Positions 201 to 21,412 of a DNA stretch of 24,532 nucleotides are shown one piece after another (the first letter of the stretch is position 1; the number at the start of each line of letters is the position of its first letter). A program made the translations under genes and the position numbers. The notes under the pieces are model-generated. The model saw only the letters and a program-made list of their open reading frames with translations, was not told where the DNA came from and searched no databases. The stretch comes from Thermoproteota archaeon (GTDB lineage: Archaea; Korarchaeota; Korarchaeia; Korarchaeales; Korarchaeaceae), in contig JAOZFH010000044.1 in NCBI GenBank assembly GCA_027491415.1, positions 1-24,532 on the forward strand, given 5' to 3'.

Positions 201-214
201 CGAAGTTTTTATTT
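201..214 (+). promoter_or_regulatory. BRE/TATA promoter of the pilin gene (probably leaderless)
   Basis: CGAAG-TTTTTATTT lies about 27-35 nt upstream of GTG 241, the usual archaeal spacing. Confidence 0.6.
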
Positions 215-240
215 GAGCGACGGAGCTTGATTTTCACCGG

Positions 241-708: not shown

Positions 709-730
709 GGGCTGAGACCCCTGGTCAGGC

Positions 731-758
731 CTTTTGGTTTTTTATTTTTTCTTCTTCT
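731..758 (+). terminator. Oligo-T archaeal terminator after the pilin gene
   Basis: CTTTTGGTTTTTTATTTTTTCTTCTTCT begins about 23 nt after TAA 708. Confidence 0.7.
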
Positions 759-948
759 ATTGACCCCTTGTCTGATCAGAACTTCTACCTGCACTGGTCA
801 GGCAGCTCCAAAGATTGGTGATCAGGTTCTAGTCGAGTGCTGAAAGGCTGTTCGTGGCGCCGCTCTCCTTCGCTCACCGGCCCTTCTATCAGCCTAACGA
901 TTCATGTTATAACTACGCGACGCTCTTATTGGTTGAGGTCGATCGGCC

Positions 949-1440: not shown

Positions 1441-1444
1441 GCGG

Positions 1445-1960: not shown

Positions 1961-1964
1961 TGAC

Positions 1965-3236: not shown

Positions 3237-3701
3237 TTGGAGCAGGCGGTGACGTGGGGGGCCATTATCCTGGTGGCACTCATAATCTCAGCGTACATCG
3301 TGGCGATAAGGCCGGCGGTCGTCTCATACAAGCTGGAGCGAGAGGCCAGGGATCTTGCGACTACCCTAGCCACCGAGATCACGTTCGTGGCCAGGGCCTA
3401 TGAGTCCGGCGTGCTGTCCCAGGTAGCCGTGGTGGAGGCGCCCGAATCACCGAACAAGTACTATGAGGTGCACGTGGACGAGAACAGGTCTGTTGTGGAG
3501 GTCTGGGTGGTGGCAGAGACCCTGACGGGCGAGATCAGGGTAAAGGCGGAGGCCCCGTTCTACTCCTCGATAAACGTCACATCGCCGCCCAAGCTGTACA
3601 GCGGCAAGATATTCATCGTCCTGACCTACGACGAGGGAACCGACTCGTACCTGATCAAGGTGGCCAATATCGTCGCGCAGCTTCCCACGGCGGGAGGGTG
3701 A
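3237..3701 (+). CDS. Minor pilin-like protein
   Basis: N-terminal TM helix, amphipathic helix (LEREARDLATTLATEI) and beta-rich C-terminus; TTG start abuts the previous stop codon. Confidence 0.7.
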   Translation: MEQAVTWGAIILVALIISAYIVAIRPAVVSYKLEREARDLATTLATEITFVARAYESGVLSQVAVVEAPESPNKYYEVHVDENRSVVEVWVVAETLTGEIRVKAEAPFYSSINVTSPPKLYSGKIFIVLTYDEGTDSYLIKVANIVAQLPTAGG

Positions 3702-3767
3702 CCGCCGCGCGGGGGATTGAAAAAAGGTAAAGGTAAAGGGAACTCTCCGTCAGGCTGAGGGATTCCC

Positions 3768-5204
3768 GTGCTTGGTCGTGGCAAGAAGAAGGAGGATCCC
3801 CTGAAGTTCGTCGACACGTGGGATGAGCACTACTCTCTCCTAGACGGACTCGGAGACCTCCTGGAGATAGAAGAGGGCCTGACCTGGCGGGGAGTTATAG
3901 AGGACAAGTACGTGGTCATTGAGCCACCGGAGCCGCCTAAGGAGCTTCTTGAGGAGGCCAAGGAGTTCGTGCTGTCGAGGATAACCCTAGAGGAGATGGA
4001 GAAACTAGAGGACCTCTACAAGGAGGCAGCCGCGAGGGTCCTGAAGATCAAGCTGAAGAAGGGAAAGCCGCCCGACGAGAGGGCCCAGAGGGCGCTCAAG
4101 GCCTTCACCTACTACCTGAGGAGGGACATCCAAGGGCTCGGGAAGCTCGACCCGATACTGAAGGATGAGGAGGTAGAGGATCTGACGCTGCCGGCCAGAG
4201 GGTCCAGGAAGATCTACGTGTTCCTATCAGGCCGGCCTAGCTGGCTAGAAAGCAACGTCGAGATGTCAGAGGAGGAGGCTAGGTTTGTCGTCCTCAAGCT
4301 GGCGGAGATGGTCGGAAGGCAAGTCTCCCTGGCTAGGCCGAGGCTGGAGGGAAGGCTCCCCGACGGAAGTAGGGTGCACGCCCTCTTCGGACCTGCGGCA
4401 AGCGAGGGAGGGACAACCTTCACTATTAGGAAGTTTGTAAGAAGGCCGGGAATAGAGGAGCTGATCATCTACGGCACTATCACGGTGGAGGCAGCGGCGT
4501 ACCTCTGGATGGTCGCGGAGCACGGGATGTCGGGTTTCATAGTCGGCGAGACAGGGAGCGGGAAGACCACATTCCTGAACGCCCTGCTCTCCCTGCTGCC
4601 AAAGGACAGGCACATCGTCACCGTGGAGGACACGCCGGAGATATACCTTCCCGAGCACGGGAACTGGACCTCGCTCATCGGGCAGCCCCCTGGGGTCTCG
4701 GCGGCCGGCCTGACGATAGCCGACCTCATGAGAGACGTTCTCAGGATGCGACCCGACTACGTGGTTGTCGGAGAGAGCAGGGGCGCGGAGACAAGGCTCC
4801 TCGTCCAGTTCATCCACCTGGGCCACACGGCGCTGACCACCTTCCACTCGGACACCCTCGAGGGCGTGCTCGCCAGGCTGACGAGCGATCCAATCAACCT
4901 CCCAGAGGAGAGGGTGGCAGACTTCAGGGTGGCCGTACTCCTAAGGAGGGAGGGCAAAAAGAGGAGAGTCGTGAGGATAGCCGAGATCCTCTACGAGAAC
5001 GGCGAGCTGAGGTTGAACGACGTGTTCACCCTGAAGTACGACGAGCTGGTGGGTGACCCGCTGAGGAACAGCGTGCTCTTCAGAGAGATAGCGAAGAAGG
5101 AGGGACGCCCGCTCAACGACGTGATAGACGAGTACCTGAGAAGGGTCGATGAGCTGGCGGCGAGGGTCGCCAAGTTCAGGGCGAAGATGGCCCTGGCCAG
5201 GTGA
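3768..5204 (+). CDS. Type IV pilus assembly ATPase (VirB11/ArlI/PilB family)
   Basis: Walker A GETGSGKT, Asp box VEDTPE, Walker B RMRPDYVVVGE, His box GHTALTTFHS, and a GRLPDGSRV motif. Confidence 0.95.
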   Translation: MLGRGKKKEDPLKFVDTWDEHYSLLDGLGDLLEIEEGLTWRGVIEDKYVVIEPPEPPKELLEEAKEFVLSRITLEEMEKLEDLYKEAAARVLKIKLKKGKPPDERAQRALKAFTYYLRRDIQGLGKLDPILKDEEVEDLTLPARGSRKIYVFLSGRPSWLESNVEMSEEEARFVVLKLAEMVGRQVSLARPRLEGRLPDGSRVHALFGPAASEGGTTFTIRKFVRRPGIEELIIYGTITVEAAAYLWMVAEHGMSGFIVGETGSGKTTFLNALLSLLPKDRHIVTVEDTPEIYLPEHGNWTSLIGQPPGVSAAGLTIADLMRDVLRMRPDYVVVGESRGAETRLLVQFIHLGHTALTTFHSDTLEGVLARLTSDPINLPEERVADFRVAVLLRREGKKRRVVRIAEILYENGELRLNDVFTLKYDELVGDPLRNSVLFREIAKKEGRPLNDVIDEYLRRVDELAARVAKFRAKMALAR

Positions 5205-5210
5205 TGGCCT

Positions 5211-6773
5211 TTGATCTCCAACGAGATGCTGGTAAAGGCTGGAATGTATGACGTCAGACCGGAGGACTTCAGGAAGCGGCTTATCCTAACAGCTACAGTA
5301 TCTGCGATCCTCTCCGCGGTTGCCGCTTACTTCGGGGTGCTCAAGAACCCCTACTACGCTATTCCCCTTGCGCTAATTCCGCCGGTCATCTACCTGATCA
5401 CCCCTTTTCTAGGGATCCTGAGCCTGGCCAGCAGCATTGAGGAGGACTTCTGGGCCTACCTGGCCTCCCTCTGGATACTCCAGAGGGTTGGGAGGGCGCT
5501 GAGCGACTGCTTCAGGGTCGCGGCCAACATAGCCCCGCGGAAGGAAGCCGCCGAGTACTTCAAGAGGGTGGCGAGCAGGATAGCCGCGGCAGGCTCCCTA
5601 GCGGGGCTCGAGATAAACAGGAGGCTCTCTCCAAGCCAGGCCTGGTCGCGGGTCTACGCGAGGCTCCACGACTACCTGGCCACGAGGGGAGAGGCGGTAA
5701 GCGAGATGCTGAAGGTCGAGCTGGAGGACTCAATCAACAGGACCCTGATAGCGCTCAGGGAGAGGACCGAGAGACTGATGATGGTACTGATCATCTACAC
5801 GCTCACCGCCACCATATTCCCCTTCGTCATGATCATGATCTTCTCCTTCCAGGCGCTGGCCCAGGAGGGGGCCGTCAGCTCGGGCCCGCTGGTGGCCACG
5901 ATAGCGACCACGGTAGTTCCCTCCCCGATATTCGTCTTCCTCTTCAAGGTGTTCAGCACCAGGCTCTTCTACTTCAAGCAAGACACCGTTATCCACGCGT
6001 GGGCCAGATCGCTCGGCGTGACCGCCATCGTGTTCTCGGCAATGACCTACCTAGAGGGAAAGGGGATGAGCCCCCTCCCAGTGGAACTCGGCACCACGAG
6101 GATCGCCATGCTCGCCGTGGGAGTCGGTGGGATCATTGGCTGGCTCACCATAAGGAGGGAGGAGTGGGTCCTGAGGGGCCAGGCCTTCGACTTTCCAATG
6201 CTGCTCCAAGACATATTCGCAGAACTCAGGGGCGGCAGACCCTTCTCAGAAGCCGTTCTGTCAGCTAAAGCACCATACAAGCCGCTCAAGGAGCTGGTAT
6301 CCAAGATGAAGGCCTGGGCGAAGCTCAGGCTCCCGTACATGGTCATCCTGGAGAGCGTCGCGAGGGAGGTCAGGTACAGCGTCTCTCGCCTGATCAGCCT
6401 CCTGATCATCAACGCGCTCAACGCGGGCGCGGACCTGGAGGAGACCTTTGAGACCATCTCCGAGTTCACCGGTCGCATCAGGGAGCTTTGGATGGACACC
6501 GAGGGTCAGAAGATGGCGAACTATCTGACGGCACTGCTGGCGTTCTTCCTGGTGGTGGGATCGTACGTGCTGATGTTCCGGATACTGAACGTGGAGGCTA
6601 TCTCTAAGGTGGCTTCCGAAACCGTCCGGAGCGCCATCCTGTTCCAGGCCTTCGCACAAACTACGGTTATAGCCCTGAGCCTCGGCACGGTGAGGACGGG
6701 GCACTTCACCTCGGGGCTGAGAGAGTTGGGCTTCATGTCCCTGGTGACTCTGGCCGTCATGATGTTCATCTAG
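5211..6773 (+). CDS. Pilus membrane platform protein (TadC/ArlJ, T2SS-F family)
   Basis: Multiple TM helices with two helical cytoplasmic domains, directly after the ATPase; SD AGGTGA 6 nt before TTG. Confidence 0.88.
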   Translation: MISNEMLVKAGMYDVRPEDFRKRLILTATVSAILSAVAAYFGVLKNPYYAIPLALIPPVIYLITPFLGILSLASSIEEDFWAYLASLWILQRVGRALSDCFRVAANIAPRKEAAEYFKRVASRIAAAGSLAGLEINRRLSPSQAWSRVYARLHDYLATRGEAVSEMLKVELEDSINRTLIALRERTERLMMVLIIYTLTATIFPFVMIMIFSFQALAQEGAVSSGPLVATIATTVVPSPIFVFLFKVFSTRLFYFKQDTVIHAWARSLGVTAIVFSAMTYLEGKGMSPLPVELGTTRIAMLAVGVGGIIGWLTIRREEWVLRGQAFDFPMLLQDIFAELRGGRPFSEAVLSAKAPYKPLKELVSKMKAWAKLRLPYMVILESVAREVRYSVSRLISLLIINALNAGADLEETFETISEFTGRIRELWMDTEGQKMANYLTALLAFFLVVGSYVLMFRILNVEAISKVASETVRSAILFQAFAQTTVIALSLGTVRTGHFTSGLRELGFMSLVTLAVMMFI

Positions 6774-11071: not shown

Positions 11072-11815
11072 TCAGCCACGCAGTCGAATCAGGGCCTTCT
11101 CCGAGTAGGGCCTCAGGTCTCTCGTGCCGCCTCCTTCGGCCACCACCCTCATGGCGGAGTGGGGATCCGTGAACCTGACGCCGGCGAGCGCGGTGACCCC
11201 CCTCGCCTGGAAGGGCTCCGGGACCAGTGGGACGCTCGGGCCGACTACGACCCTCTCCCTGGCGTCGGAGGAGAGTTCCAGAGCCCTCTCGAGGGTCTTG
11301 TTGGGGATCGTGGAGCCGGTCGCGAGGAGGACGGTGCACCTGGGGGCCAGCTCCTCCACGGCCCAGTCGGGGAGTACCCCGCGGGAGATCTTAGGCGGCC
11401 TCTCCAGCACCCACAGCTCGGCCACGGCGGCCCTTATCCTGTCGAGGTAGGGCTGTGGGAAGCCGCCGAGGACGCACACCCGATCGTCTTGCCTCAGGTC
11501 AACCTCGTCGAGGGGGTCGGCTCGCCGGTACTCCCCGGGATCGGCGGCGGCGGAGAGGGTGGCAACCCCGATGGAGGACTCGACCCCGGTCGGAGAGAAC
11601 GCCAGCCTCGCCAACTCGTCGGCGCGGCGGCCCCTGGCCCCGCCCGGCGGGGGAGTCCTCTCTGCGCTCCTCCCCTCCAGGACCGTGTAGCACACTCCCA
11701 GCCTGTCTCGATCGAGGAGGACGCCCGTGTAGGGGAAGCTCACCGCGAGGTCGCTGATCGTTGACTCCCGGAGTTCACCCTCCAGCACGCCGTATATCTC
11801 CCTGAGCAGGTCCAC
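11072..11815 (-). CDS. DUF364/Rossmann-like domain protein (putative metal handling)
   Basis: ESSIGVAT..A, LATGSTIPNKT and VVGPSVP..P match the DUF364 pattern as I recall it. Start moved to GTG 11815 on the basis of a TATA-like TTTATT at about 11840-11845 on the minus strand. Confidence 0.75.
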   Translation of the reverse strand: MDLLREIYGVLEGELRESTISDLAVSFPYTGVLLDRDRLGVCYTVLEGRSAERTPPPGGARGRRADELARLAFSPTGVESSIGVATLSAAADPGEYRRADPLDEVDLRQDDRVCVLGGFPQPYLDRIRAAVAELWVLERPPKISRGVLPDWAVEELAPRCTVLLATGSTIPNKTLERALELSSDARERVVVGPSVPLVPEPFQARGVTALAGVRFTDPHSAMRVVAEGGGTRDLRPYSEKALIRLRG

Positions 11816-11837
11816 GCCGCCTCGGTGCCGTGGAGAT

Positions 11838-11880
11838 CCAATAAATCGAGGCGCCTGTGGGACGCCCACACTTTTTACGA
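11838..11880. promoter_or_regulatory. Divergent TATA boxes for the DUF364-like gene (-) and moeA (+)
   Basis: AATAAAT (minus ATTTATT) at about 11840-11846 and CTTTTTA at 11871-11877, each about 25-30 nt from its start codon. Confidence 0.55.
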
Positions 11881-11906
11881 CCCAGCTCGGGAGCGGTCCG
11901 AGGCCG

Positions 11907-13184
11907 ATGAGCCACGTCTGGAGGGGATTTCAGAGGCTCACGAGGGTCGATGCGGCCAGAGACTCATTCTTCCGCTCAGTAAAGCTTGAGCCGACTGAGC
12001 CAGAGGAGGTCGCGCTCTCAGAGGCCCTCTGGAGGGTGCTCGCGGAGGACGTGAGCGCCCCGGCTGACGTCCCTCCCAGGGCGAGGGCCGCCCTCGACGG
12101 ATACGCGGTGAGGTCCACGGACACCCTCGGAGCCTCTCCAGAGTCTCCCATAGTGCTAAGGGTCGTGGGCGAGGTCAGGGCCGGGCACCCGCCAGACTTC
12201 GGCCTCTCCGCGGGGGAGGCCGCCAGGATATTCACGGGCGCATACCTTCCGGAAGGCGCGGACGCGGTGGTCCCGGTGGAGGACGCCGAGGAGCTGGGGG
12301 AGTCCGTGGAGATCTACACACAGGTTCCAGCGTGGAAGAACGTCGCCAGGCCGGGAGAGGACGTGAAGAGGGGAGAACTCGTTCTGAAAGCTGGGACGCC
12401 CCTGGGCCCGTACGAGATCGGCCTGCTGGCCGAGCTGAACATCCCCAGGGTTCCGGTGAGGAGGAGGCCGAGGGTCGCTCTGGCCTGCACGGGAGACGAG
12501 ATAGTCGAGGTCGGCGGGGATGTCCCCTTGGGGAAGGTCCCAAACTCCCTCAGGTTCATCGTGGAGGCGATGATCAGGCAGGCGGGCGGGGAGCCCACCT
12601 ACCTCGGGATGGTCGAGGATGAGCCGGACGAACTCATCCGAGCCGTAGAGTCGGCGAGGGACGCCGACCTGATCCTGACGACGGGAGGCACCAGCGTGGG
12701 AAAGGCCGACATGGTGTACAGGGCCGTCCTGGAGGCCGGCGGTGAGATGGTTGTGCACGGGGTCGCCGCCATGCCCGGGCGTCCAGCCCTCTTGGCGAAG
12801 CTCCCCGACGGGAGGCCGTGGATCGGTCTGCCGGGTTACCCGGTCGCCGCCGTGGTGGACTTCAGGCTGTTCGCCGCACCGGCAATCTGGAGGCTCCTGG
12901 GCCTCAGGTGGAGGCCCCTGGCCCCCGGGGTGAGGGCCAGGCTGGTCGCGCCGATCCCCTCATCTCCGGGCGTCAGGCACTTCGCCAGGGTCAGGCTGAC
13001 GCTGTCTGAGGCCGGGGACCTGCTGGCGGAGCCCGTCAGGGTGAGCGGGTCCGGGATACTCAGCTCCCTCGTGAGGGCCGACGGCTTCGTGGAGGTTCCG
13101 GAGGATGTGGAGGGATACCCGGAGGGCTCGGTGGTCTGGGTCGAACTGCTGACCCCATACGAGAGGTGGAGGGAATGGATCTGA
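11907..13184 (+). CDS. moeA: Molybdopterin molybdotransferase MoeA
   Basis: DGYAV, IFTGAYLPEGADAVV, GEDV, TGDEI, TGGTSVG, PGRP, GLPGYP and SSLVRADG motifs. Confidence 0.95.
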   Translation: MSHVWRGFQRLTRVDAARDSFFRSVKLEPTEPEEVALSEALWRVLAEDVSAPADVPPRARAALDGYAVRSTDTLGASPESPIVLRVVGEVRAGHPPDFGLSAGEAARIFTGAYLPEGADAVVPVEDAEELGESVEIYTQVPAWKNVARPGEDVKRGELVLKAGTPLGPYEIGLLAELNIPRVPVRRRPRVALACTGDEIVEVGGDVPLGKVPNSLRFIVEAMIRQAGGEPTYLGMVEDEPDELIRAVESARDADLILTTGGTSVGKADMVYRAVLEAGGEMVVHGVAAMPGRPALLAKLPDGRPWIGLPGYPVAAVVDFRLFAAPAIWRLLGLRWRPLAPGVRARLVAPIPSSPGVRHFARVRLTLSEAGDLLAEPVRVSGSGILSSLVRADGFVEVPEDVEGYPEGSVVWVELLTPYERWREWI

Positions 13185-13933
13185 GGGTCCTGCTGGCAGC
13201 GATGGGGGGCCTGGGGATAGGGGCTGTGAGCGCGATGACGGGGACGGGAGGGGGCACCCTCCTCGTGCCTCTCTACACACTCGTACTCGGCATGGAAATG
13301 AAGTCGGCCGTCGCGACCAGCCTGATGACGATGCCGCTCACGGCGCTGAGTTCCATACTCGTCTACCGAGAGATAATCGACTACAAGCTGGGTCTAGCCC
13401 TCGAGGCCACGACGACCGTGGGGGCATACCTCGGAGCCAAGGCGGTGACATCCATCCCGGAGGGGGCTCTCAGGATGGCGTTCGCCGTCGTCCTGGGATT
13501 CGTGGCCTTCAACATGCTTCGCAAGAGGGAGTCATCCGACGATGCTGGGCTCAGGCGAGGCTGCTCGCGGCTATTCACCGCCATGGGCGTGTCATTTCTG
13601 GCGGGGGCCTTCAGCGGGATGCTGGGGATAGGGGGAGGAACGATCAAGGTCCCCATACTCGTGCTCGTATGCGGCACCGGCGCCAAGACGGCCGTCGCGA
13701 CATCCATGTTCATGATAGCGATCACCTCCACGGTGGGAGCGTCGACCCACTACCTGGAGGGGAGGGGGCACCCGCTGATCGCGCTGATCACGGCCACCGG
13801 GCTCGTGGTGGGCGCCAGGGCGGGGGCGAAGAAGGCGATGGGACTTAGAGGGACCACGGTCAGGAGGATATTCGCGGCGTTTCTCATGCTGGTGGCCCTG
13901 AGGATGGCCCTACAGGCGTGGGGGATAATATGA
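13175..13933 (+). CDS. TauE/SafE (TSUP) family sulfur-compound transporter
   Basis: Duplicated GxGGGx..VP motifs (GTGGGTLLVP, GIGGGTIKVP), AVATS twice, about 8 TM helices; ATG 13175 follows GGAGGG. Confidence 0.9.
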   Translation: MDLRVLLAAMGGLGIGAVSAMTGTGGGTLLVPLYTLVLGMEMKSAVATSLMTMPLTALSSILVYREIIDYKLGLALEATTTVGAYLGAKAVTSIPEGALRMAFAVVLGFVAFNMLRKRESSDDAGLRRGCSRLFTAMGVSFLAGAFSGMLGIGGGTIKVPILVLVCGTGAKTAVATSMFMIAITSTVGASTHYLEGRGHPLIALITATGLVVGARAGAKKAMGLRGTTVRRIFAAFLMLVALRMALQAWGII

Positions 13934-15933
13934 GAGATGGAAGGAGGATCTTTCGGAGCCTCAGCTCGGTTGACCAGGTGAGATCGGAGATCTGGGCTCG
14001 GCTTAGGGGGTTCGAGAGGAAGGTCGAGGAGATCCCCCTCGCAGAGGCTCTGGGAAGGGTGCTGGCCAAGGACATCGTCTCGCCGGTGGACATACCGGGG
14101 TTTGACAGATCCACAAAAGACGGATACGCGGTTCGGGCCGAGGATACCTTCGGAGCCGATCAGGAGAATCCCGTCTCCCTCAGAATCTTGGGCGTTGCCT
14201 CGGCCGGGCACCCGTACCGCGGGACGGTGGGTGAGGGAGAGGCCGTGGAGATAGCGACGGGGGCGCCCGTCCCCCCCGGCGCCGACGCCGTCGTCATGGT
14301 GGAGTACACCCGCCGGCTGGGGGATGTGGTTCAGGTGTATCGGGCCGTGGCGCCCGGGGAGAACGTTCAGTCGGCCGGAAGGGACATCAACCTCGGAGAG
14401 ACCCTGGTCTGGAGTGGGGACGTAATCGGGCCGAGGGAGATCGGGGTACTCGCGGCCGCGGGGATCGATCGGGTCAAGGTCTACTCACGCCCCCGGGTCG
14501 CGGTGATCAGCACTGGAGACGAGCTGACGCCGCAGGGGGTGGGCCTAGAGTACGGGAAGATCTACGACATCAACGGTCCCGCGCTTTGCGCCTCGATAAG
14601 GGAGGACGGCGGAGAGCCTGTATACATGGGGATAGCCGGGGATGAGGAGTCGGAGATCGCGAGGCTGATAGAGGAAGGTATTTCCAAGGCCGATCTGCTG
14701 GTGGTGTCGGGGAGCACAAGCGCCGGCGCCGGAGACGTGATCTACAGGGTACTTGACGGGATCGGAGAGCCGGGGGTGTTCGTCCACGGGGTGGCGATGC
14801 ACCCCGGGAAGCCGACGGTCGTGGCTCAGATTGGTCGAAAGCTTGCGTTCGGCCTTCCCGGAAACCCCACCAGCGCCATGACTGCGTACAGGATCTTTGT
14901 GGGTCCCGTGATCAGGTACCTAGCGGGGCTCGAGCCGGAGCCCGAGTCGATGAGGATCAGGGCCACCTTGGCCGAGCGGACGAGGGCCGCTAGGGGGAGG
15001 CGCGACTTCCTGCCCGTCCACCTAGTCAGGGATGCAGAGGGGAACGTCCTGGCGTTTCGCGTTCCCGGCGGGTCCGAGGCGATAACCACCTTCTCTCGCG
15101 CCGACGGGATACTGGAGGTTCCGGAGGAGGTGGAGTATCTGGAGCAGGGGGAGCCCGTGATTGTGACACTCTTAGATCCCGAGAGGGGGCCCGCCGATCT
15201 GTCCATCGTGGGGAGTCACTGCCTAGGCCTGGAGGAGCTCCTCAGGGTGGCGAGGCCAGGGCTCGGGGGGAGTCGAGTTAAAGTCGTCAGCGTGGGCTCG
15301 ACAGGCGGCTTCCTCGCGGTGAGGAAGGGGGAGGCGGACGTGGCGGGCGTGCACGCGCTGGACCCTTCCACTGGAGAGTACAACGTCCCCTTCCTGAGGT
15401 CGATGGGCGTCTCCGAGGTCGCGATCCTCGTGAGGGGGTACGTCAGGGTGCAAGGCCTGATTGTAGCGCCGGGCAACCCCAAGGGGATCAGGGGTGTGGA
15501 GGACCTGCTGAGGCCCGACGTCCGGATGCTGAACAGGAACCCCGGGTCCGGCACCAGGATCCTGATGGACTGGCTGACCGAGGAGCTGGCCAGGGAGCGG
15601 GGCGTCGACGTGGAGGAACTCAGGTCCTCCATCCGGGGGTATCGGAGCGCGGCCAAGTCCCACGCCGCCGTGGCCTCGGCGGTCAAGGCCGGGCTCGTTG
15701 ACGTCGGCCCAGGTATAGAGGCCGCCGCGAGGCTGCGGGGGCTGGACTTCATTCCGCTCTGGAGGGAGCGGTACGACTTCCTAGTGAGGATTGACCGCCT
15801 GCCCAAGCGCGAGGTCCAGGCGCTCCTAGAGACCCTGAGGTCCGTCGCGTTCCGGAAAGCCCTGGACCGGCTCCCCGGCATAGAAGCCGACGAGAGGACC
15901 GGTGAAGTGATCCACGATCCGCGGCGGACCTAA
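13930..15933 (+). CDS. moeA: MoeA fused to C-terminal periplasmic-binding-protein-like domain (archaeal MoeA-PBP)
   Basis: MoeA motifs (FDRSTKDGYAV, STGDEL, GLPGNPTSA) followed by GSHC, VGSTGG, GNPKGI and NRNPGSGTR of the PBP domain; ATGA overlap with the upstream gene. Confidence 0.93.
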   Translation: MRDGRRIFRSLSSVDQVRSEIWARLRGFERKVEEIPLAEALGRVLAKDIVSPVDIPGFDRSTKDGYAVRAEDTFGADQENPVSLRILGVASAGHPYRGTVGEGEAVEIATGAPVPPGADAVVMVEYTRRLGDVVQVYRAVAPGENVQSAGRDINLGETLVWSGDVIGPREIGVLAAAGIDRVKVYSRPRVAVISTGDELTPQGVGLEYGKIYDINGPALCASIREDGGEPVYMGIAGDEESEIARLIEEGISKADLLVVSGSTSAGAGDVIYRVLDGIGEPGVFVHGVAMHPGKPTVVAQIGRKLAFGLPGNPTSAMTAYRIFVGPVIRYLAGLEPEPESMRIRATLAERTRAARGRRDFLPVHLVRDAEGNVLAFRVPGGSEAITTFSRADGILEVPEEVEYLEQGEPVIVTLLDPERGPADLSIVGSHCLGLEELLRVARPGLGGSRVKVVSVGSTGGFLAVRKGEADVAGVHALDPSTGEYNVPFLRSMGVSEVAILVRGYVRVQGLIVAPGNPKGIRGVEDLLRPDVRMLNRNPGSGTRILMDWLTEELARERGVDVEELRSSIRGYRSAAKSHAAVASAVKAGLVDVGPGIEAAARLRGLDFIPLWRERYDFLVRIDRLPKREVQALLETLRSVAFRKALDRLPGIEADERTGEVIHDPRRT

Positions 15934-15947
15934 TGGGAAACGGAGGC

Positions 15948-16508
15948 TCACCCACCGCTTCCGTGGCCGTCGGCGTGCTTGTGCCTGTACCCTCTCGCGA
16001 CCCACACTGCGTGCTCGGCTTCCGGGAGGATGAGCCTCTCCAAGGCGAGCCGGATCCCGTCTGGAGATCCCGGGAGGCAGAACACCACTGAACCGCCGAT
16101 CACCCCGGCTGTGGCCCTTGAGAGGAACGCTGCGGGTCCCACCTGCTCGTAGCTGAGCATCCGAAAGAGCTCTCCGAATCCGGGGAGCTCCTTTGTAAAA
16201 GCTGGCCGCACGGCCTCTACCGTGACGTCATTCGGGTGGGGACCGGTGCCTCCAAGGAAGAGCACCACGTCGACCTTGCCTGCGGCCGCCCTGAGCGCCT
16301 CACCTATTTCCTCCAGCGAGTCTGGCAGCACGTCCCTCTCGACGACCCGGTGACCGGCCGACTCGACGAGGCTAACCGCGAGGTCTCCGCTCTCGTCTAC
16401 GAAGGCCTCTCCACGCGACTTGGCGGCGTGTCTCGAGGAGCTGACCACGAAGACGGCGAAGGTGAGCTCAGACCTGGCGCGCTCCCTGTGGCGATCTACG
16501 GACCTCAC
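15948..16508 (-). CDS. moaB: Molybdenum cofactor biosynthesis protein MoaB/MogA
   Basis: DESG, GGTG...DVTVEA, PGFGELFR, SRATAG and LPGSP motifs. Confidence 0.93.
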   Translation of the reverse strand: MRSVDRHRERARSELTFAVFVVSSSRHAAKSRGEAFVDESGDLAVSLVESAGHRVVERDVLPDSLEEIGEALRAAAGKVDVVLFLGGTGPHPNDVTVEAVRPAFTKELPGFGELFRMLSYEQVGPAAFLSRATAGVIGGSVVFCLPGSPDGIRLALERLILPEAEHAVWVARGYRHKHADGHGSGG

Positions 16509-16581: not shown

Positions 16582-16657
16582 AGGGGCGGGCTCAGCGTGA
16601 GCTGGGATTCACATCCCTCGTTCGAATGATGTTCGCTCCAATCATCGCCGCGCCCCT
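16582..16657 (-). ncRNA. Box C/D-like methylation guide sRNA, predicted target 23S rRNA domain V
   Basis: Minus strand reads AGGGGCGCGGC-G-AUGAUU...AUGUGA-AUCCCAGCUCACG-CUGA-GCCCGCCCCU: terminal stem, variant C box, exact D box. The 11-nt guide is complementary to the conserved rRNA sequence CGUGAGCUGGG. TATA-like TTAAAAAG at 16685-16678. Confidence 0.75.
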
Positions 16658-16708
16658 ATCGGTCGGCCCATCTCGGGCTTTTTAATTCGAGTCGGGCAAC
16701 CCGTCGCG

Positions 16709-17443
16709 ATGGCCGCCGACGGGCTGAGCCTAGAAATCCGGGAAGTGGATCGGGCGGAGGGCATCGGCCTCATCGAGTATCTGCTGTCGCCAGTCAAGGA
16801 TCCGTGGAGCGTCTTCAGAAAGGCCACGAGGCGGCCCAGCCTGAGGCTGTTCCTGCTGGCGGCCCTGATAGTGTCCGCCATGGGAGCTGCTGGCGGCGTC
16901 ATCTCGGCCTCCAGGACTGAGTACAGATTCGTCAACCTCCCCGAGGGCGTCGACCCAGCGCAGATCCAGGCCGCAGCGAGGGTGTTCAGCGGACCGGCCT
17001 TCGTGGGCGCGACGTCGTTCGTCTCTGGGATGGTGGTCGCCCTACTGGCGGGCGGACTCGCCCACGTCGTCGCGAGGCTGGCCGGAGGAGAACCCGTGAA
17101 CCTATCCACCACGCTGACCTGCTTCGGGGCGGTGTACCTGACGGAGGGCGTGAAGTCACTGATAGATGTGGTCGGCCTGCTTCAGACCCTGCCCGGGAGG
17201 ATCGTCATCACGATAGACCTCGCCAACCCCTACTCGGCGCGCGCGGGCGACGTAGCGAAGCAGTTCCAAGCCACGCCCGTGTCGCTCGCCATGTCGGGTC
17301 TGGTGGCTGTGTGGCAGTGGTTCCTCCTCACAGAGCTGATGAGGACGGTATTTGGCCTGGGCCGGGGCGAGTCGGCGGCCGCCGCCGCGGTTCTGGTCCT
17401 GCTGAAGTTCATCCCGCTGTTCGCCGACCTCGCGCTGTGGTGA
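16709..17443 (+). CDS. Yip1-domain membrane protein
   Basis: LSPVKDPWSVFRK N-terminal pattern, about 5 TM helices, AHVVARLAGG motif; first gene of the operon with tmcA. Confidence 0.7.
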   Translation: MAADGLSLEIREVDRAEGIGLIEYLLSPVKDPWSVFRKATRRPSLRLFLLAALIVSAMGAAGGVISASRTEYRFVNLPEGVDPAQIQAAARVFSGPAFVGATSFVSGMVVALLAGGLAHVVARLAGGEPVNLSTTLTCFGAVYLTEGVKSLIDVVGLLQTLPGRIVITIDLANPYSARAGDVAKQFQATPVSLAMSGLVAVWQWFLLTELMRTVFGLGRGESAAAAAVLVLLKFIPLFADLALW

Positions 17444-17461
17444 CACGCTGGGGGATCTCAA

Positions 17462-19732
17462 TTGACGGATCTAGTGGAGGCAGTGGCCGAGGGACTGGCA
17501 AGGGAGGCCCTGGAGAGCGGCGAGCGGAGGCTCCTCCTGGTATCGTGCGAGGACAGGCTGGGGGCCCTGGCTAAGGTGGCCAGGGTCTACAGGAGGGTCG
17601 CGGGTGAGGGGGTCAGCGCCCTCTACTCCAACGTCTGGAACGGAGAGGAGGTCCTGGGGAGCCGGAGGTTGGCGAGCCAGATCCCGAGAGACGTTCGCCT
17701 GACGTCCCTGGACTTCGACCGCAGCGAGGAGGCCATGGGGGGAACCTGGGACATTCTCCTCGCGGACTTCTCCGTGCAGATGAGGGCAAACGACATAGGG
17801 AGGCTGGTCGAGACTGTCAGAGGAGGCGGCCTAGTCGTCATGGCCATCCCGCCCGTGGAGGAGTGGCTGAGGACCCTCACGGACTTTCAGAGGCGGCTAG
17901 CCTCGCCGCCGTACCGAGAGTCCGACGTGAGGGCCGAGTTCAAGAAGCGGCTCCTCAAGACCGTGAAGAGCGCCGAGGGCGCCAGGTTCGTGGATCTCGA
18001 GTCTGGCGACGTTACAGGCGCCCCGAGAGTGATTCAGAGGAGGGAGCGTCAGCCCCCCCAAGTGGACGACCCCCTGATGAGCCTGGCCCTGACCCCAGAG
18101 CAGGTGCGAGTGGTGGAGGCAATCGACAGGCTGTCTCGGGCCCCCAACAAGTCCGCACTGCTCGTAGTGGCCAACAGGGGACGGGGCAAGTCGGCCGCCC
18201 TGGGACTGGGAATAGCCCACCTGATGGGGAGGAGGGGCGTTAGGGGTGTGGCGGTTACGGCCCCAGCGGTAGCGGGAGTTCAGACCCTCTTCAGGTTCGT
18301 CTCCAAGGGGCTCGAGGCGCTGGGGATACGCGGAAGGGCCGTCGTGAAGGACGGGAAGACGATGGCCGTCACGGCCAAGGGGAGGTCCGCGTTCTACCTG
18401 ACCCCGATGAGCCTCGTCGACTCCAACGTCAAGGTGAAGGTCGTCGACGAGGCCGCCGGGATCCCGACGCACCTGCTGTTCAAGGTGCTGGGATCGAGCA
18501 GGCTGGCCATCTTCTCCAGCACGATTCACGGGTATGAGGGCGCCGGGAGAGGATTCTCCCAGCGATTCATGGCCAGGCTCGAGACCGCGAGCGGGGTGAT
18601 GGTGGAGAAGGTGGAGATGCGGACCCCGATACGGTACCCCGAGGGCGACCCAGTCGAGAGGTGGCTCTACGACTTCCTGCTGCTCGACGCGGAGCCTGGA
18701 GACCCGCCCGAAGGCGCCTCCCCGGAGGCTGGGGAGTACGTGAAGGTGGACCTGTCCGCCAGCGACGAGGAGTTCCTCAAGAAGTTCTACGGGATCTACG
18801 TCTTGGCCCACTACAGGAATAGACCCAACGACCTCGCCACGCTCCTGGACGCGCCTCACCACTCCGCGCGGGCCCTGTTGATTGAAGGGGAGCCAGTGGT
18901 CTCGGTCCAAATCTGCGAGGAGGGCAGGCTCACCCGGAGATACATCGAGGGCATCCTGAAGAGGACGGAGAACCCGCCCGGGCACATGATACCCTCGAGG
19001 CTGCTGGCGCACTACGGGCACAAGGGGTTCCCCAAGCTCTGGGGCTGGAGGATCGTTCGCATAGCGACCCACCCGGCGCTCCAGCGCAGGGGCCTCGGCA
19101 CGAGGGTCCTGCAGGAGATAGTGAGAGAGGCGCGGGCGGCCGGGGTTGACTGGGTGGGCGCCGGCTTCGGGGTGAGCGAGGATCTCCTCAGGTTCTGGGT
19201 CAGGGCCGGCTTCCTGCCGGTTCACATAAGCCCCCAGAGGAACCCGGTCTCCGGAGAGTACAGCGTCTTCGTCGTCCTCCCCCTCAGCAGGCAGGCCGAG
19301 GACATGTTGAGGGAGATAGTTGGAGAGTTCAAGAGGAGGCTGATCGACTCCCTGCACGATGTCTACTTCGACCTCTCTCCTCGCGTGGGCAGGATGCTCC
19401 TCTCGCCACGTTGGGGGGAGACCAGGCCCAGGCTCAGGTTCAGCCAGAAACTGAGGCTGAAGGACTACCTGACGGGCTACAACACCTACGAGATGGCCTC
19501 AGACGCGGTTTGGGAGATCGCCAGGGCTTACTTCCTCTCTCCCCCCGACGAGAGGCCGCTCACGGAAGAGGAGGAGGTCGCGCTGCTCGCGCGAACCCTG
19601 CAGGGCCGTGGTTGGGGCATGGTCGCCGGACTCCTGAAGGTTAAGAAGGTCGTCAAAGTTATGGACATCCTCAGGGGGGCCGTTAAGAAGCTGGTGATGC
19701 TCTATGGGGAGAAAGAAATCGCTGAGGTTTGA
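17462..19732 (+). CDS. tmcA: RNA cytidine acetyltransferase TmcA/Nat10 (ac4C writer)
   Basis: N-terminal ETVRGGG, helicase-like ANRGRGKSAALG, DEAAGIP, STIHGYEGAGRGF, PIRY..GDP.E.WL, AHYRNRPNDL, and GNAT RIVRIATHP..QRRGLG. Confidence 0.95.
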   Translation: MTDLVEAVAEGLAREALESGERRLLLVSCEDRLGALAKVARVYRRVAGEGVSALYSNVWNGEEVLGSRRLASQIPRDVRLTSLDFDRSEEAMGGTWDILLADFSVQMRANDIGRLVETVRGGGLVVMAIPPVEEWLRTLTDFQRRLASPPYRESDVRAEFKKRLLKTVKSAEGARFVDLESGDVTGAPRVIQRRERQPPQVDDPLMSLALTPEQVRVVEAIDRLSRAPNKSALLVVANRGRGKSAALGLGIAHLMGRRGVRGVAVTAPAVAGVQTLFRFVSKGLEALGIRGRAVVKDGKTMAVTAKGRSAFYLTPMSLVDSNVKVKVVDEAAGIPTHLLFKVLGSSRLAIFSSTIHGYEGAGRGFSQRFMARLETASGVMVEKVEMRTPIRYPEGDPVERWLYDFLLLDAEPGDPPEGASPEAGEYVKVDLSASDEEFLKKFYGIYVLAHYRNRPNDLATLLDAPHHSARALLIEGEPVVSVQICEEGRLTRRYIEGILKRTENPPGHMIPSRLLAHYGHKGFPKLWGWRIVRIATHPALQRRGLGTRVLQEIVREARAAGVDWVGAGFGVSEDLLRFWVRAGFLPVHISPQRNPVSGEYSVFVVLPLSRQAEDMLREIVGEFKRRLIDSLHDVYFDLSPRVGRMLLSPRWGETRPRLRFSQKLRLKDYLTGYNTYEMASDAVWEIARAYFLSPPDERPLTEEEEVALLARTLQGRGWGMVAGLLKVKKVVKVMDILRGAVKKLVMLYGEKEIAEV

Positions 19733-20057
19733 CAGGAGGTACGTGGACAGCATACTCAGGGGAGAGAAGGTCACCACGATCAGGAGGACGACGAGGCTCA
19801 AGCCGGGGGACGTGGTGGACTTGGTGGCCGGGGAAGAGGTGTTTGGCGAGGCCCTCGTGAAGGACGTGAGGAAGGTGAGCCTCTCCGGGCTCACGGACGA
19901 GGAAGCCCGGCGGGACGGGTTCGAGTCCAAGGAGGGGCTGGTGAAGGCCCTGAAGAGGTACTACGGCAGGAGAGTGCTCGAGGATGATCAGCTCTGGATG
20001 ATCGAATTTCAGCTCTTAGAGGGCAGCGACAAAAACTTCGAAGGTGAAAGAGGTTGA
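19704..20057 (+). CDS. ASCH domain protein
   Basis: ILRGEKVTTIR matches the GxKxxTxR signature; LTDEEARRDGF and terminal W.IEF also fit. SD GGTGA at 19693-19697; overlaps tmcA by 29 nt. Confidence 0.9.
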   Translation: MGRKKSLRFDRRYVDSILRGEKVTTIRRTTRLKPGDVVDLVAGEEVFGEALVKDVRKVSLSGLTDEEARRDGFESKEGLVKALKRYYGRRVLEDDQLWMIEFQLLEGSDKNFEGERG

Positions 20058-20067
20058 AGCAGGCGGA

Positions 20068-20136
20068 GGGGGCCTCAGGAGGGATCCAGGATCCTCATCA
20101 ATCGGCGGGCCTAGCGAACTTCCTTCATCGGCCCCC
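20068..20136 (-). ncRNA. Box C/D methylation guide sRNA, predicted target 23S rRNA
   Basis: Minus strand reads GGGGGCC-G-AUGAAGG-AAGUUCGCUAGGCCCG-CCGA(D')-U-UGAUGA(C')-GGAUCCUGGAUCCCUC-CUGA(D)-GGCCCCC: perfect 7-bp terminal stem, exact C' and D boxes. The D' guide is complementary to CGGGCCUAGCGAAC. Confidence 0.85.
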
Positions 20137-20194
20137 CTGAGGGGGGGTCCAAGCCTCCAAAAGAGTTTGCGCCACTGAACGCACTCTGGGGCGA

Positions 20195-21412
20195 TCACTC
20201 CACTATAACGGCCAGAGCCTGACCAGGCCAGTCTTCGGGTATGTAGCCCCACTCGGCTATTTGAATCAGGCCGGTGCTCGCCAGCTCCACGAAGTCAGGC
20301 TTCAAGAGGAGGTTCTTCCTGACGGTCAGCGTCACGAGGCTGGAGCCAATCATCGTCCTATCCTCGGCCAGCTCTCGAACCCTCGACGTCAGAGCGTCGC
20401 CCCACCCCCTGGGCTCTAGTGGAACGGCGCGTCCCCCGAACAGCCTCCTGAGCTTTGACCCCAGCCCAGGCTCCGTGAGCTTTGATGGTGGTAACAGCTC
20501 GAGCCTCGTCCTCTTCCCCTCTCCGAAGATCACAACCCCGAGTGGAACCTTAACCCGTGAGCACGACTCAAAATCTTCCTCCCCCAGCGCGGTCAGTAGG
20601 CTTCTAGACTTCACCTCGCTCTCTAGCTCCCTCTTAAGATTATCCAGAGCCTCTATCGGCTGACCATACCTCGCGTCTACCCCCTGAAGTTCCCTGGACC
20701 TTTCTTCCTCCAGCTGCGCCCTCCTAATCTCGAACTCCTCGCCCTCTAGGTGAAGTTGGGCTTCAGAGATTCTCGCAGCATAGGCCCTTGAGATGGCGGC
20801 CCTCTCTGACTCCGCTAGGGACCTGATCGAGTTGGTTAGAGCCTCCAGCTTATTCAGATAACTCTCGAGGATCTCAACATCTCTTTTGGACCTCACGCTG
20901 ATCTCTTTTAGGGCCGAATAGGAGCTGGTTGCCTTCTCTTGCGTTAGTGAAGGTGGCAAAGTGCCGCCAGGAAGTCCCGAATCTTCTACCGCTTCAGAGA
21001 GGGCCCACCTAATTAGCCGGGGGTCTACCAACCCGGAGAGTTCAACGTCTCTCCTCGCAGACCTTATGCTGGAGTAGGCAAACTCAGCCGACCTCGTCAG
21101 CTGCTCCAGGTCTGGTATGGAGGGCCTATCCAAGAAGGCAAGGGCCGAAGACAGCGCGTCGCGATCCGTTAGGCCGAGTCGGAGGGAGAGTAATCCAGAT
21201 GGGTCCCAAAGGGTGCACCTGCCGTCTACCCTCATCGGCTCTAGGGTGAATTCCACCACTCCAAGCCCGACGGGCTTCTCAGTTTTGGACCATGGAAACC
21301 TGCCTCTCTTGGCCTTGCTCCACGCGAATAGGGTGATGGCCCCGGCCTCCAGCTCGGGTGACGGTGGGGCATTTGGAGCCGCGATAAGGGGGACCCTCAA
21401 GCAGCGCGACAC
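20195..21412 (-). CDS. Hypothetical protein with central coiled coil
   Basis: 405-aa ORF filling the gap, with a charged heptad-rich middle and an AT-rich promoter-like tract at about 21438-21455; no catalytic motif recognised. Confidence 0.75.
   Translation of the reverse strand: MSRCLRVPLIAAPNAPPSPELEAGAITLFAWSKAKRGRFPWSKTEKPVGLGVVEFTLEPMRVDGRCTLWDPSGLLSLRLGLTDRDALSSALAFLDRPSIPDLEQLTRSAEFAYSSIRSARRDVELSGLVDPRLIRWALSEAVEDSGLPGGTLPPSLTQEKATSSYSALKEISVRSKRDVEILESYLNKLEALTNSIRSLAESERAAISRAYAARISEAQLHLEGEEFEIRRAQLEEERSRELQGVDARYGQPIEALDNLKRELESEVKSRSLLTALGEEDFESCSRVKVPLGVVIFGEGKRTRLELLPPSKLTEPGLGSKLRRLFGGRAVPLEPRGWGDALTSRVRELAEDRTMIGSSLVTLTVRKNLLLKPDFVELASTGLIQIAEWGYIPEDWPGQALAVIVE

Follow-up and report, generated by a model that had tools for sequence, protein, structure and literature searches.

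An ASCH gene overlapping the 3' end of tmcA in a korarchaeal genome: a probable YqfB-clade amidohydrolase of N4-acetylcytidine

In a heat-loving korarchaeon, a gene for a small stand-alone ASCH protein lies partly inside the gene for TmcA, the writer of N4-acetylcytidine (ac4C). With a probability that we put at roughly 0.7, the ASCH protein is a YqfB-clade amidohydrolase that takes the N4-acetyl group off cytidines modified by TmcA, being expressed from one mRNA with tmcA and acting on both RNA and nucleoside substrates. This reading draws on gene structure, family, fold, residue conservation and synteny, from which we reason to a likely chemistry and substrate. The pairing of tmcA with an ASCH gene is itself already in print (two 2026 preprints), and the locus, found in a window of 24,532 nucleotides (the whole stretch of DNA that was analysed), is a further korarchaeal member. 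The taxon spread of the pair, its overlap pattern and its losses are counts of the present analysis.

Introduction

To our knowledge, ac4C is the only acetylation known in RNA, and it may or may not be reversible. The ASCH superfamily paper of Iyer, Burroughs and Aravind (2006) may, reportedly, already mention an acetyltransferase neighbourhood, while our literature search on tmcA–ASCH linkage returned nothing bearing on it beyond the two preprints.

In February 2026, Statkeviciute et al. reported that ASCH proteins of A. fulgidus and P. kukulkanii strip ac4C from tRNA (bioRxiv 10.64898/2026.02.27.708502). According to these authors, archaeal ASCH proteins of the GKTR type hydrolyse ac4C and remove it from tRNA in vitro, and every ASCH protein assayed, the archaeal ones included, was active on tRNA ac4C in vitro; Afu2ASCH brought ac4C hydrolysis to completion within 4 h and removed ac4C from both E. 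coli and wheat-germ tRNA (10.64898/2026.02.27.708502). The first-pass annotation of the locus, which knew of no described archaeal ac4C eraser, is outdated on this point. Gene neighbourhood goes unmentioned in the text of that preprint. In August 2026, Relier et al. described a conserved operon that joins ASCH genes of the YqfB clade to TmcA/Nat10 and took the linkage as support for the clade acting on the product of TmcA (bioRxiv 10.64898/2026.08.01.741249); their wording is “several prokaryotes”, with the data placed in Fig. S1a, and the word “archaea” does not occur in the main text.

Organization of the locus

The features of the locus all lie on the forward strand (Table 1). Because the ASCH gene starts 29 nt inside tmcA behind a Shine-Dalgarno-like site of its own, translational coupling of the two genes is probable, as the overlap suggests. 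The open reading frame coordinates and the GGTGAT string bear out what the first-pass annotation had noted on both counts; GGTGAT is presumably complementary to the 3' end of 16S rRNA, and a comparison of upstream strings placed GGTG-type sites at the equivalent position in the relatives.

Table 1. Features of the korarchaeal tmcA–ASCH locus, in window coordinates
Feature	Position	Strand	Details and basis
TATA-box-like element TTTTTAATT	16679..16687	+	about 26 nt 5' of the ATG of the Yip1-domain gene; sequence inspection
Yip1-domain membrane protein gene	16709..17443	+	244 aa; Pfam Yip1, E 2.3e-8; stop 18 nt before tmcA
GGGGGAT, Shine-Dalgarno-like	17450..17456	+	5 nt 5' of the tmcA TTG; sequence inspection
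tmcA, archaeal Nat10 homologue	17462..19732	+	756 aa, TTG start; RNA cytidine N4-acetyltransferase (ac4C writer); Pfam and orthologues
GGTGAT, Shine-Dalgarno-like, within the coding end of tmcA	19693..19698	+	5 nt 5' of the ASCH ATG; sequence inspection
Overlap of tmcA 3' end and ASCH 5' end	19704..19732	+	29 nt, different frames; open reading frame list
YqfB-clade stand-alone ASCH gene	19704..20057	+	117 aa, ATG start; predicted ac4C amidohydrolase; Pfam ASCH, YqfB sequence and fold match

The writer presents the Pfam domains TmcA_N (residues 12–178, E 7.6e-28), NAT10/TmcA helicase (NAT10_TmcA; residues 235–409, E 2.5e-50) and GNAT_acetyltr_2 (residues 443–554, E 1.4e-38) in this order, and its translation contains GRGKS, which we take to be the P-loop, and QRRGLG, presumably the GNAT motif. 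It aligns over its full length (residues 8–754) with the NCBIfam model NF041296 at 475.7 bits, below the cut-off of 700, which does not weigh against its identity as TmcA since the model is a lineage-specific equivalog built for haloarchaeal TmcA. TmcA orthologues occur in 32 of the 41 related genomes.

The Yip1-domain gene and tmcA probably share one transcript, and the element TTTTTAATT, placed by the geometry of archaeal promoters, is a possible promoter of a Yip1–tmcA–ASCH transcription unit. A wider conserved operon was rejected: among 80 tmcA loci, the upstream Yip1 gene, which is thus no conserved partner, and the downstream gene for a 405-aa protein have counterparts in no locus other than the near-identical L031. 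A search of sequencing runs for positions 16600–20300 listed 18 matching runs, every one of DNA, with shares of 0.19 or less. Scans of the window for tRNAs (ARAGORN) and Rfam families gave no matches, and ARAGORN ruled out as a tRNA a T-loop-like string at about 16600–16630.

The ASCH protein and its match to YqfB

E. coli YqfB is the nearest solved relative of the ASCH protein by both sequence and fold. The protein gives the sole match to the Pfam ASCH family (PF04266) in the genome (54.8 bits, cut-off 21.2, E 1.7e-14), over positions 1–102 of the 103 in the profile, and a single-protein homologue search returned just 4 close relatives that are 74–97% identical to it, one of them named as Korarchaeota. 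A profile built from 33 archaeal ASCH relatives retrieved YqfB (9KYF/1TE7) over its full length at E 2e-10, with the next ASCH structure at 2.7e-4, and hhalign aligned the protein with YqfB over 96 columns at 97.3% probability. The NCBIfam YqfB equivalog NF003443, a model built on enterobacterial-type YqfB, gave 28.2 bits, short of its cut-off of 93.

The AF2 model of the protein (pLDDT 84.7) leads to the same relative. Foldseek placed three YqfB chains at the top (E 5e-9, TM 0.73–0.84), the next ASCH structure following at 1e-5, and of the 18 PDB matches at E ≤0.001, those among the matches listed are all ASCH structures. The superposition on YqfB that the first-pass annotation had proposed yielded, with VIA-align, a Z of 15.5 and an rmsd of 1.4 Å over 97 of 101 residues, the best among ASCH structures, other ASCH proteins reaching a Z of at most 12; across ASCH structures Z ranged from 8 to 15.5, as expected of the PUA-like beta-barrel fold. 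In the model there are no helices beyond the strand at residues 96–104 and no C-terminal HTH of the AAAD_HTH kind (about 80 residues), and the tail at about residues 106–117 is short (12 residues), acidic and disordered or of low confidence, following a basic core.

The two motifs picked out in the first reading of the sequence were located at residues 20–27 (GEKVTTIR) and 67–73 (EARRDGF). The former follows the G-x-K-x-x-T/S-x-R pattern of the YqfB clade, with Thr/Ser and not Glu two residues before the Arg. Both HMMER and hhalign pair K22, T25, R27 and D71 with K21, T24, R26 and E74 of YqfB, and Y87 maps onto Y89, such that the acidic residue and Tyr89 of the clade have their counterparts in Asp71, a conservative change, and Tyr87. 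In YqfB, alanine mutants of K21, T24 and R26 are reported to be inactive and E74A to be 100-1000-fold slower (PMC6972931). K22, T25, R27 and Y87 are invariant in all 33 archaeal ASCH relatives, among which position 71 is Asp in 27, Glu in 4 and Ala in 2. The two proteins with Ala (L023 and L033) are TmcA-linked ASCH orthologues of another genus, and the acid is therefore not indispensable to the role of the clade, whatever that role may be. Asp27 and His70, described as 100% conserved among close YqfB homologues (PMC6972931), are not kept in the korarchaeal protein, which has Arg28 and Glu67 in their places; His stands at the Glu67 position in 5 of the 33 relatives.

Linkage of tmcA and ASCH across archaea

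Same-strand adjacency of tmcA followed by ASCH was found in 16 of the 27 ASCH-bearing related genomes, spread over 7 genera. A contig scan with an alignment of the TmcA C-terminus gathered 80 archaeal tmcA loci, of which 25 show the same adjacency (22 of 75 when only loci whose downstream flank spans at least 350 nt are counted). Given this recurrence, the pairing is no chance association, and the arrangement first noticed in one genome is not confined to it. The lineages represented among the 25 linked loci are Korarchaeota-like archaea, Bathyarchaeia, Nezhaarchaeota, Archaeoglobales, Alkanophaga, Thermoplasmata and DHVE2, and in 23 of these loci the ASCH gene overlaps the 3' end of tmcA, by a median of 26 nt with the start codons chosen in this analysis. 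All 27 ASCH-bearing genomes have a TmcA match, while none of the 9 genomes without a TmcA match carries this ASCH gene. The pairwise identities of TmcA and ASCH co-vary (Mantel r 0.82, with 0 of 5000 permutations as high), a figure inflated by relatedness.

One entire genus has lost the linkage (0 of 10 genomes); another, in which TmcA is present, yielded the ASCH gene in none of 4 genomes. The pairing is therefore dispensable. The reference to Thermococcales by which the first-pass annotation framed the ac4C writer does not fit: the host is Korarchaeota-like, and the flanks of the 4 Thermococcus/Thermococci tmcA loci that were examined do not contain the ASCH gene.

The TmcA-linked archaeal ASCH proteins are predominantly basic, with a median pI of 9.6 and values of at least 9 in 26 of 33. 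The korarchaeal protein has a pI of 8.9 overall and of 9.5 for residues 1–105, against 4.7 for YqfB. In a sister family within the same phylum, two TmcA-linked orthologues (L025 and L027) end in a C-terminal extension of 4 predicted helices resembling the tRNA-binding HTH tail described by Statkeviciute et al. (10.64898/2026.02.27.708502); in the C-terminal extension of such long forms, Pfam gave only sub-threshold matches to Sigma70_r4_2 and HTH_50. Both this basic charge and the existence of sister forms with helical tails make us lean towards RNA, and not the free nucleoside alone, as a substrate.

Proposed function and alternatives

The initial suggestion of an ac4C-directed ASCH deacetylase coupled to TmcA is well supported by homology, fold, catalytic residues and synteny. 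Both proteins would be made from one mRNA, probably with translational coupling, and the supply of deacetylase would therefore scale with that of the writer. By analogy with YqfB, Lys22 would serve as the base, Thr25 as the nucleophile, Arg27 as the oxyanion stabiliser and Asp71 as the acid in place of Glu74, while Tyr87 may help to hold the base of the substrate. That substrate would be ac4C that is exposed by flipping out of an RNA, be it tRNA, another RNA or a fragment, together with the free nucleoside, such that acetylated cytidines would be trimmed or recycled instead of accumulating in the cell. On the other side of the deacetylase reading stand the score below the NF003443 cut-off, the replacement of Asp27 and His70, the Ala71 of L023 and L033 and the dispensability of the pairing.

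Less probable, though still a serious contender, is a role restricted to salvage, in which, as has been proposed for YqfB and EOLA1, the ASCH protein would deacetylate ac4C that RNA turnover sets free as nucleoside or nucleotide and never intact RNA, the operon scaling this clean-up to the amount of ac4C made. YqfB, the closest solved relative, is described as a nucleoside amidohydrolase (PMC6972931), and deletion of yqfB is reported to leave tRNA ac4C unchanged in E. coli (10.64898/2026.02.27.708502). For EOLA1, Relier et al. describe activity on free ac4C and a shielding of ac4C by structured RNA; they also report unchanged cellular RNA ac4C in human EOLA1/2 knock-outs and a narrow pocket in YqfB (10.64898/2026.08.01.741249). 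The unchanged RNA ac4C in the yqfB and EOLA1/2 knock-outs is what makes free-ac4C salvage a live alternative; together with the shielding by structured RNA it speaks against RNA as a substrate, and the “reversible RNA-acetylation module” that had been envisaged for the locus is a hypothesis. Salvage would also involve no futile cycle with the co-expressed writer, whereas co-production of writer and eraser for one substrate would amount to such a cycle unless their targets differ. On the other hand, the TmcA-linked archaeal clade is basic where YqfB is acidic, helical-tailed orthologues linked to TmcA occur in the sister family, and archaeal GKTR proteins are reported to deacetylate tRNA in vitro (10.64898/2026.02.27.708502). 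A weak argument of the same direction comes from the 96%-complete genome, which was searched for two families and yielded neither a tetrameric cytidine deaminase (TIGR01354) nor a uridine/cytidine kinase (PF00485) above the cut-off, the one PF00485 match reaching 20 bits.

A more elaborate form of the proposed deacetylase function, which we regard as a long shot, is that TmcA and the ASCH protein form a physical writer–deacetylase unit in fixed proportion, in which the latter proofreads exposed, misplaced or transient ac4C while buried sites are protected by RNA structure. If this were so, a promiscuous archaeal Nat10 would gain its final site pattern in this way, or the pattern would be reset when the temperature falls.

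Slightly more doubtful again is a non-catalytic partnership, in which the ASCH protein would bind ac4C or RNA as a reader for TmcA, a product-release factor or a substrate adaptor, a role that may be likened to that of Tan1/THUMPD1, the adaptor of eukaryotic Nat10. The PUA-like fold is one that binds RNA or bases, with the TruB PUA domain and TRIP4–DNA among the fold matches at Z of about 5–6; the gene overlap suggests roughly stoichiometric co-production, the surface is basic, and in two orthologues position 71 is not acidic. Yet the full Lys/Thr/Arg/Tyr set for YqfB catalysis is invariant (33/33), TmcA works in lineages in which the ASCH gene is absent or lies elsewhere, and all ASCH proteins assayed by Statkeviciute et al. 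were active on tRNA ac4C in vitro (10.64898/2026.02.27.708502). It is highly improbable that the protein is a ribonuclease or an enzyme of another modified base, with the tmcA neighbourhood reflecting general RNA metabolism: Zymomonas ZmASCH, cited in the introduction of the same preprint as a metal-dependent ssRNA ribonuclease, has structures among the fold matches (Z 9.4–9.8), but it belongs to the GKER group as against the GKTR motif of the korarchaeal protein, YqfB is the better match (Z 15.5 vs 9.8, identity 30% vs 10%), and the ASCH gene occurs only in genomes that also have TmcA (27/27).

An ac4C amidohydrolase thus remains the reading that we prefer, and the coupling of a deacetylase gene to that of the writer in many lineages of archaea would be the strongest genomic hint of managed ac4C turnover.

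Comparison with known systems

E. coli YqfB (PDB 1TE7, 9KYF-9KYH; PMC6972931) is, like the korarchaeal protein, a stand-alone ASCH beta-barrel of about 100 residues with a G-x-K-x-x-T-x-R motif and with Lys, Thr, Arg and Tyr at equivalent positions. The two differ in that they are about 29–30% identical, in that Asp71, Arg28 and Glu67 replace Glu74, Asp27 and His70, and in charge, the acidic YqfB standing against a basic korarchaeal protein. Their genes also differ in setting: yqfB is flanked by trhA and bglA, and the 20 kb examined around it contains no tmcA, whereas the korarchaeal ASCH gene overlaps tmcA.

Likenesses are also found among archaea. Afu2ASCH of Archaeoglobus fulgidus and the archaeal GKTR ASCH proteins are likewise stand-alone, of the GKTR type and basic in pI (10.64898/2026.02.27.708502). 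In Archaeoglobus, Ferroglobus and Archaeoglobales loci (L051, L107 and L085), GKTR ASCH genes encoding 103–106 aa overlap tmcA as in the korarchaeon, whose protein is about 38% identical to those of Archaeoglobales; from type and length, we infer that Afu2ASCH is the tmcA-linked gene of A. fulgidus. Afu3ASCH and Pku4ASCH, which carry a C-terminal HTH (AAAD_HTH), have the GKTR ASCH core in common with the korarchaeal protein, which lacks the HTH and ends in its 12-residue acidic tail.

The operon of YqfB-clade ASCH genes with TmcA described by Relier et al. (10.64898/2026.08.01.741249) has the same arrangement as the korarchaeal locus. To it, the present locus adds a korarchaeal example, together with the spread of the pair across phyla, gene overlap as the rule, the secondary loss of linkage in one genus and a basic TmcA-linked clade set against the acidic YqfB.

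Organization of the tmcA-ASCH locus

The ac4C writer gene of the window, tmcA, encodes a 756-aa RNA cytidine N4-acetyltransferase in which Pfam places TmcA_N, then the NAT10/TmcA helicase domain, and then GNAT_acetyltr_2. In the ORF listing, its end overlaps by 29 nt, in a different frame, a gene whose 117-aa product matches ASCH (PF04266, 54.8 bits against a cut-off of 21.2). ORFs, Pfam, and the sequence itself bear out the first-pass annotation's description of the locus in every particular, from the 29-nt overlap and the upstream site to the domains. Judging from sequence, TTTTTAATT could be a promoter of a three-gene Yip1-tmcA-ASCH unit; since the next gene downstream lies on the opposite strand, the ASCH gene would be the last of this unit.

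Features of the window, with coordinates on the whole stretch
Feature	Coordinates	Strand	Description
tmcA	17462..19732	+	756-aa ORF, TTG start
ASCH gene	19704..20057	+	117-aa ORF, ATG start
GGTGAT upstream of ASCH	19693-19698	+	5 nt before ASCH ATG
GGGGGAT upstream of tmcA		+	5 nt before tmcA TTG
TTTTTAATT	16679-16687		~26 nt before ATG of upstream Yip1-domain gene
Acidic C-terminal tail, EGSDKNFEGERG	20019-20054		ASCH residues 106-117
Convergent ORF	20195..21412	-	405 aa, without Pfam family
Type IV pilus or archaellum-like cluster	1-6773		GC 0.55-0.61
Five ORFs at start of cluster	241-3701		154-423 aa, without Pfam match
T2SSE-type ATPase	3768-5204		After the five ORFs
T2SSF-type membrane protein	5211-6773		After the ATPase
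Molybdenum-cofactor neighbourhood	11072-16508		DUF364/DUF4213, two MoeA paralogues
MoeA paralogue fused to PBP-like domain	13918-15933		671 aa

The ASCH gene converges with a 405-aa ORF whose strongest match, at a faint 18 bits, is to part of the DISARM helicase DrmD; this ORF lies in a lower-GC stretch (0.57-0.58) and recurs, among the loci of the best 80 of 568 TmcA relatives, in the near-identical locus L031 only. Elsewhere, the GC content of the pilus or archaellum-like cluster is below that of the window middle (~0.65), and the molybdenum-cofactor neighbourhood includes, in addition, a TauE exporter and a gene resembling MoaB/MogA on the opposite strand.

Fold and active site of the ASCH protein

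The 117-aa protein is the single ASCH match of its genome (1.78 Mb, 96% complete). In a single-sequence search its best solved relative is YqfB, the ASCH-fold ac4C amidohydrolase of E. coli, at a weak E of 0.011, and the NCBIfam YqfB equivalog model gives it 28.2 bits, below the cut-off of 93. A profile of 33 archaeal relatives matches YqfB over its full length at E 2.1e-10, with the second-ranked ASCH structure at E 2.7e-4, and hhalign assigns YqfB a probability of 97.3% over 96 columns with 29% identity. When an AlphaFold2 model built from the same alignment (mean pLDDT 84.7) was compared with the PDB by Foldseek, the top three hits were YqfB chains, with the ac4C complex 9KYH among them (E ~5e-9, TM 0.73-0.84, rmsd 1.9-2.4 Å), and the ASCH protein ranked next stood at E 1e-5. 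Superposition on YqfB, which the first-pass annotation had suggested, gives a close fit in VIA-align (Z 15.5, rmsd 1.4 Å over 97/101 residues), with Z of at most 12 for other ASCH proteins. The acidic C-terminal tail is predicted to be disordered (pLDDT ~49-76); it is Glu/Gly-rich in the same-genus loci L004, L005, and L006 and absent from other lineages, being genus-specific.

Three alignments, hhalign and the archaeal profile among them, pair Lys22, Thr25, Arg27, Asp71, and Tyr87 of the window protein with Lys21, Thr24, Arg26, Glu74, and Tyr89 of YqfB, respectively. According to the available portion of the YqfB study, K21A, T24A, and R26A are inactive and E74A is 100-1000-fold slower, the proposed roles being base for Lys, nucleophile for Thr, acid for Glu, and oxyanion hole for Arg (PMC6972931). 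K22, T25, R27, and Y87 are invariant across the 33 archaeal relatives, while position 71 carries Asp in 27 of them, Glu in four, and Ala in two. Two YqfB residues conserved among its close homologues differ in the window protein, Asp27 being replaced by Arg28 and His70 by Glu67. The two Ala-bearing proteins, both TmcA-linked and from another genus (L023:1495-1818 and L033:5000-5347), read AEKAGYP locally, against ARRDGF; in these, either the acid comes from elsewhere or the mode of action differs.

Conservation of the gene pair

Both proteins were searched in 41 genomes, the window's own and 40 relatives, and adjacency was taken from coordinate comparison and checked by tblastn on fetched loci. 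ASCH matches occur in 27 and TmcA matches in 32; all 27 ASCH-bearing genomes have a TmcA match (two of them mere fragments), and ASCH was found in none of the nine genomes without one, counts that, the genomes being kin, describe patterns rather than statistics. Four TmcA-bearing genomes of another genus (completeness 72-98%) gave no ASCH match. In 16 of these 27 ASCH-bearing genomes, tmcA is immediately followed by the ASCH gene in the same orientation: 5/5 in the window's genus, 5/5 in a second, 1/1 and 2/2 in two further genera, and 3/3 in two families farther away within the phylum. The unlinked cases are ten genomes of one genus, g3, and an outgroup genome with two long ASCH forms. In g3, complete assemblies included, ASCH and tmcA lie ~800 kb apart on one contig, and the ASCH gene is tightly flanked by a DUF711 gene and a thioredoxin-reductase-like gene (e.g., L014:132-2811). 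This genus belongs to the window's family, and two of its four sequences examined are acidic (pI 5.1-5.2).

For a wider survey, a TmcA C-terminal alignment was scanned against 185,579 species genomes, and an ASCH HMM was run on all ORFs of the best 80 of 568 loci, a sample skewed towards the query's relatives since the most query-like were kept. An ASCH gene is present in 27 of these 80 loci and directly downstream on the same strand in 25 (22 of the 75 whose flank beyond tmcA spans 350 nt or more, and three truncated by a contig end). The other two are L071, where the gene is upstream and divergent, and L074, an Undinarchaeota record in which a ~200-aa form with a predicted four-helix C-terminal extension lies 2 kb downstream (L074:7025-7618). 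Record titles of the 25 comprise Thermoproteota (Korarchaeota-like), Bathyarchaeia, Nezhaarchaeota, Archaeoglobus, Ferroglobus, Archaeoglobales, Alkanophaga, Thermoplasmata, Thermoplasmatales, and DHVE2, together with 'uncultured archaeon' or 'uncultured bacterium' (L038, L044, L049). Among the best 80 of 568, the HMM found no ASCH in the flanks of four Thermococcus/Thermococci tmcA loci or of the Desulfurococcales, Sulfolobales, Thermofilaceae, Thermoproteaceae, and Methanodesulfokora loci. With analyst-chosen start codons, the genes overlap in 23 of the 25 linked loci (median 26 nt), the value for L038 being unreliable owing to a stop within its tmcA frame. The adjacency that had been noted in a single sequence recurs, both among related genomes and in the wider sample.

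Pairwise identities of TmcA and ASCH co-vary across 17 linked loci (Mantel r 0.82, 0/5000 permutations as high), which would fit inheritance of the pair as a unit, although shared descent inflates r. A 39-row tree (the 33 relatives, five long forms trimmed to the ASCH part, and YqfB, with partial and near-identical sequences excluded) unites the four unlinked g3 sequences in a supported clade (95/89), nested in a weakly resolved group together with linked sequences, a placement suggesting that linkage was lost secondarily. Because the YqfB branch is very long, where it attaches is hardly informative.

Substrate and relation to known systems

We consider the ASCH protein to be an ac4C amidohydrolase coupled to TmcA, with a probability of roughly 0.7. 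The archaeal linked ASCH proteins are basic (median pI 9.6, at least 9 in 26 of 33), with a pI of 8.9 for the window protein (9.5 minus its acidic tail) and 4.7 for YqfB. The ~200-aa forms encoded immediately after tmcA in a sister family within the phylum (L025:1237-1830, L027:1222-1830) continue beyond the ASCH part into a predicted set of four helices (L025 model, pLDDT 85.3). This C-terminal extension matches no Pfam family above cut-off, with sub-threshold HTH hints, and is reminiscent of the tRNA-binding HTH tail that the available text of Statkeviciute et al. describes for archaea. The window's genome yielded no tetrameric cytidine deaminase and no uridine/cytidine kinase above cut-off. 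The basic charge against acidic YqfB, the tailed TmcA-linked orthologues, and, weakly, the missing deaminase and kinase lean towards RNA and away from salvage with free ac4C as sole substrate. Such salvage would agree with the unchanged RNA ac4C after deletion of yqfB or of the human ASCH genes EOLA1/2, as given in the accessible parts of two preprints (10.64898/2026.02.27.708502, 10.64898/2026.08.01.741249), which counts against the RNA reading, and with the narrow mononucleotide pocket and protection by RNA structure argued in the available text of Relier et al. (10.64898/2026.08.01.741249); moreover, co-expressing a writer and an eraser would be futile if both acted on identical sites. Within the amidohydrolase reading, we regard nucleoside-only salvage as the less likely of two live alternatives and rate exposed RNA-borne ac4C being among the substrates somewhat higher.

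The first-pass annotation had proposed a deacetylase or reader coupled to the writer and knew of no described archaeal eraser. Its functional reading is supported in kind by homology to YqfB, the active-site residues, and the conserved pairing, but is unproven for the window protein, and its novelty has been superseded by the preprints of Statkeviciute et al. and Relier et al. As far as its available text goes, the former reports that 19 ASCH proteins, of which A. fulgidus contributes three and P. kukulkanii six, strip ac4C from tRNA in vitro, and defines GKTR and GKER groups and the archaeal HTH tail (10.64898/2026.02.27.708502). Gene neighbourhood is not discussed in that text, where 'neighbo', 'adjacent', and 'genomic context' have no occurrences and 'operon' appears once, on another enzyme (10.64898/2026.02.27.708502). 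The latter, in a passage citing its Fig. S1a, states that YqfB-clade ASCH genes are linked to TmcA/Nat10 in an operon (10.64898/2026.08.01.741249). The tmcA-ASCH pair of the window is a korarchaeal member of this known writer-deacetylase gene pair. Unlike E. coli YqfB, its ASCH protein is basic, has Asp instead of Glu at the acid position, and is encoded by a gene physically coupled to tmcA.
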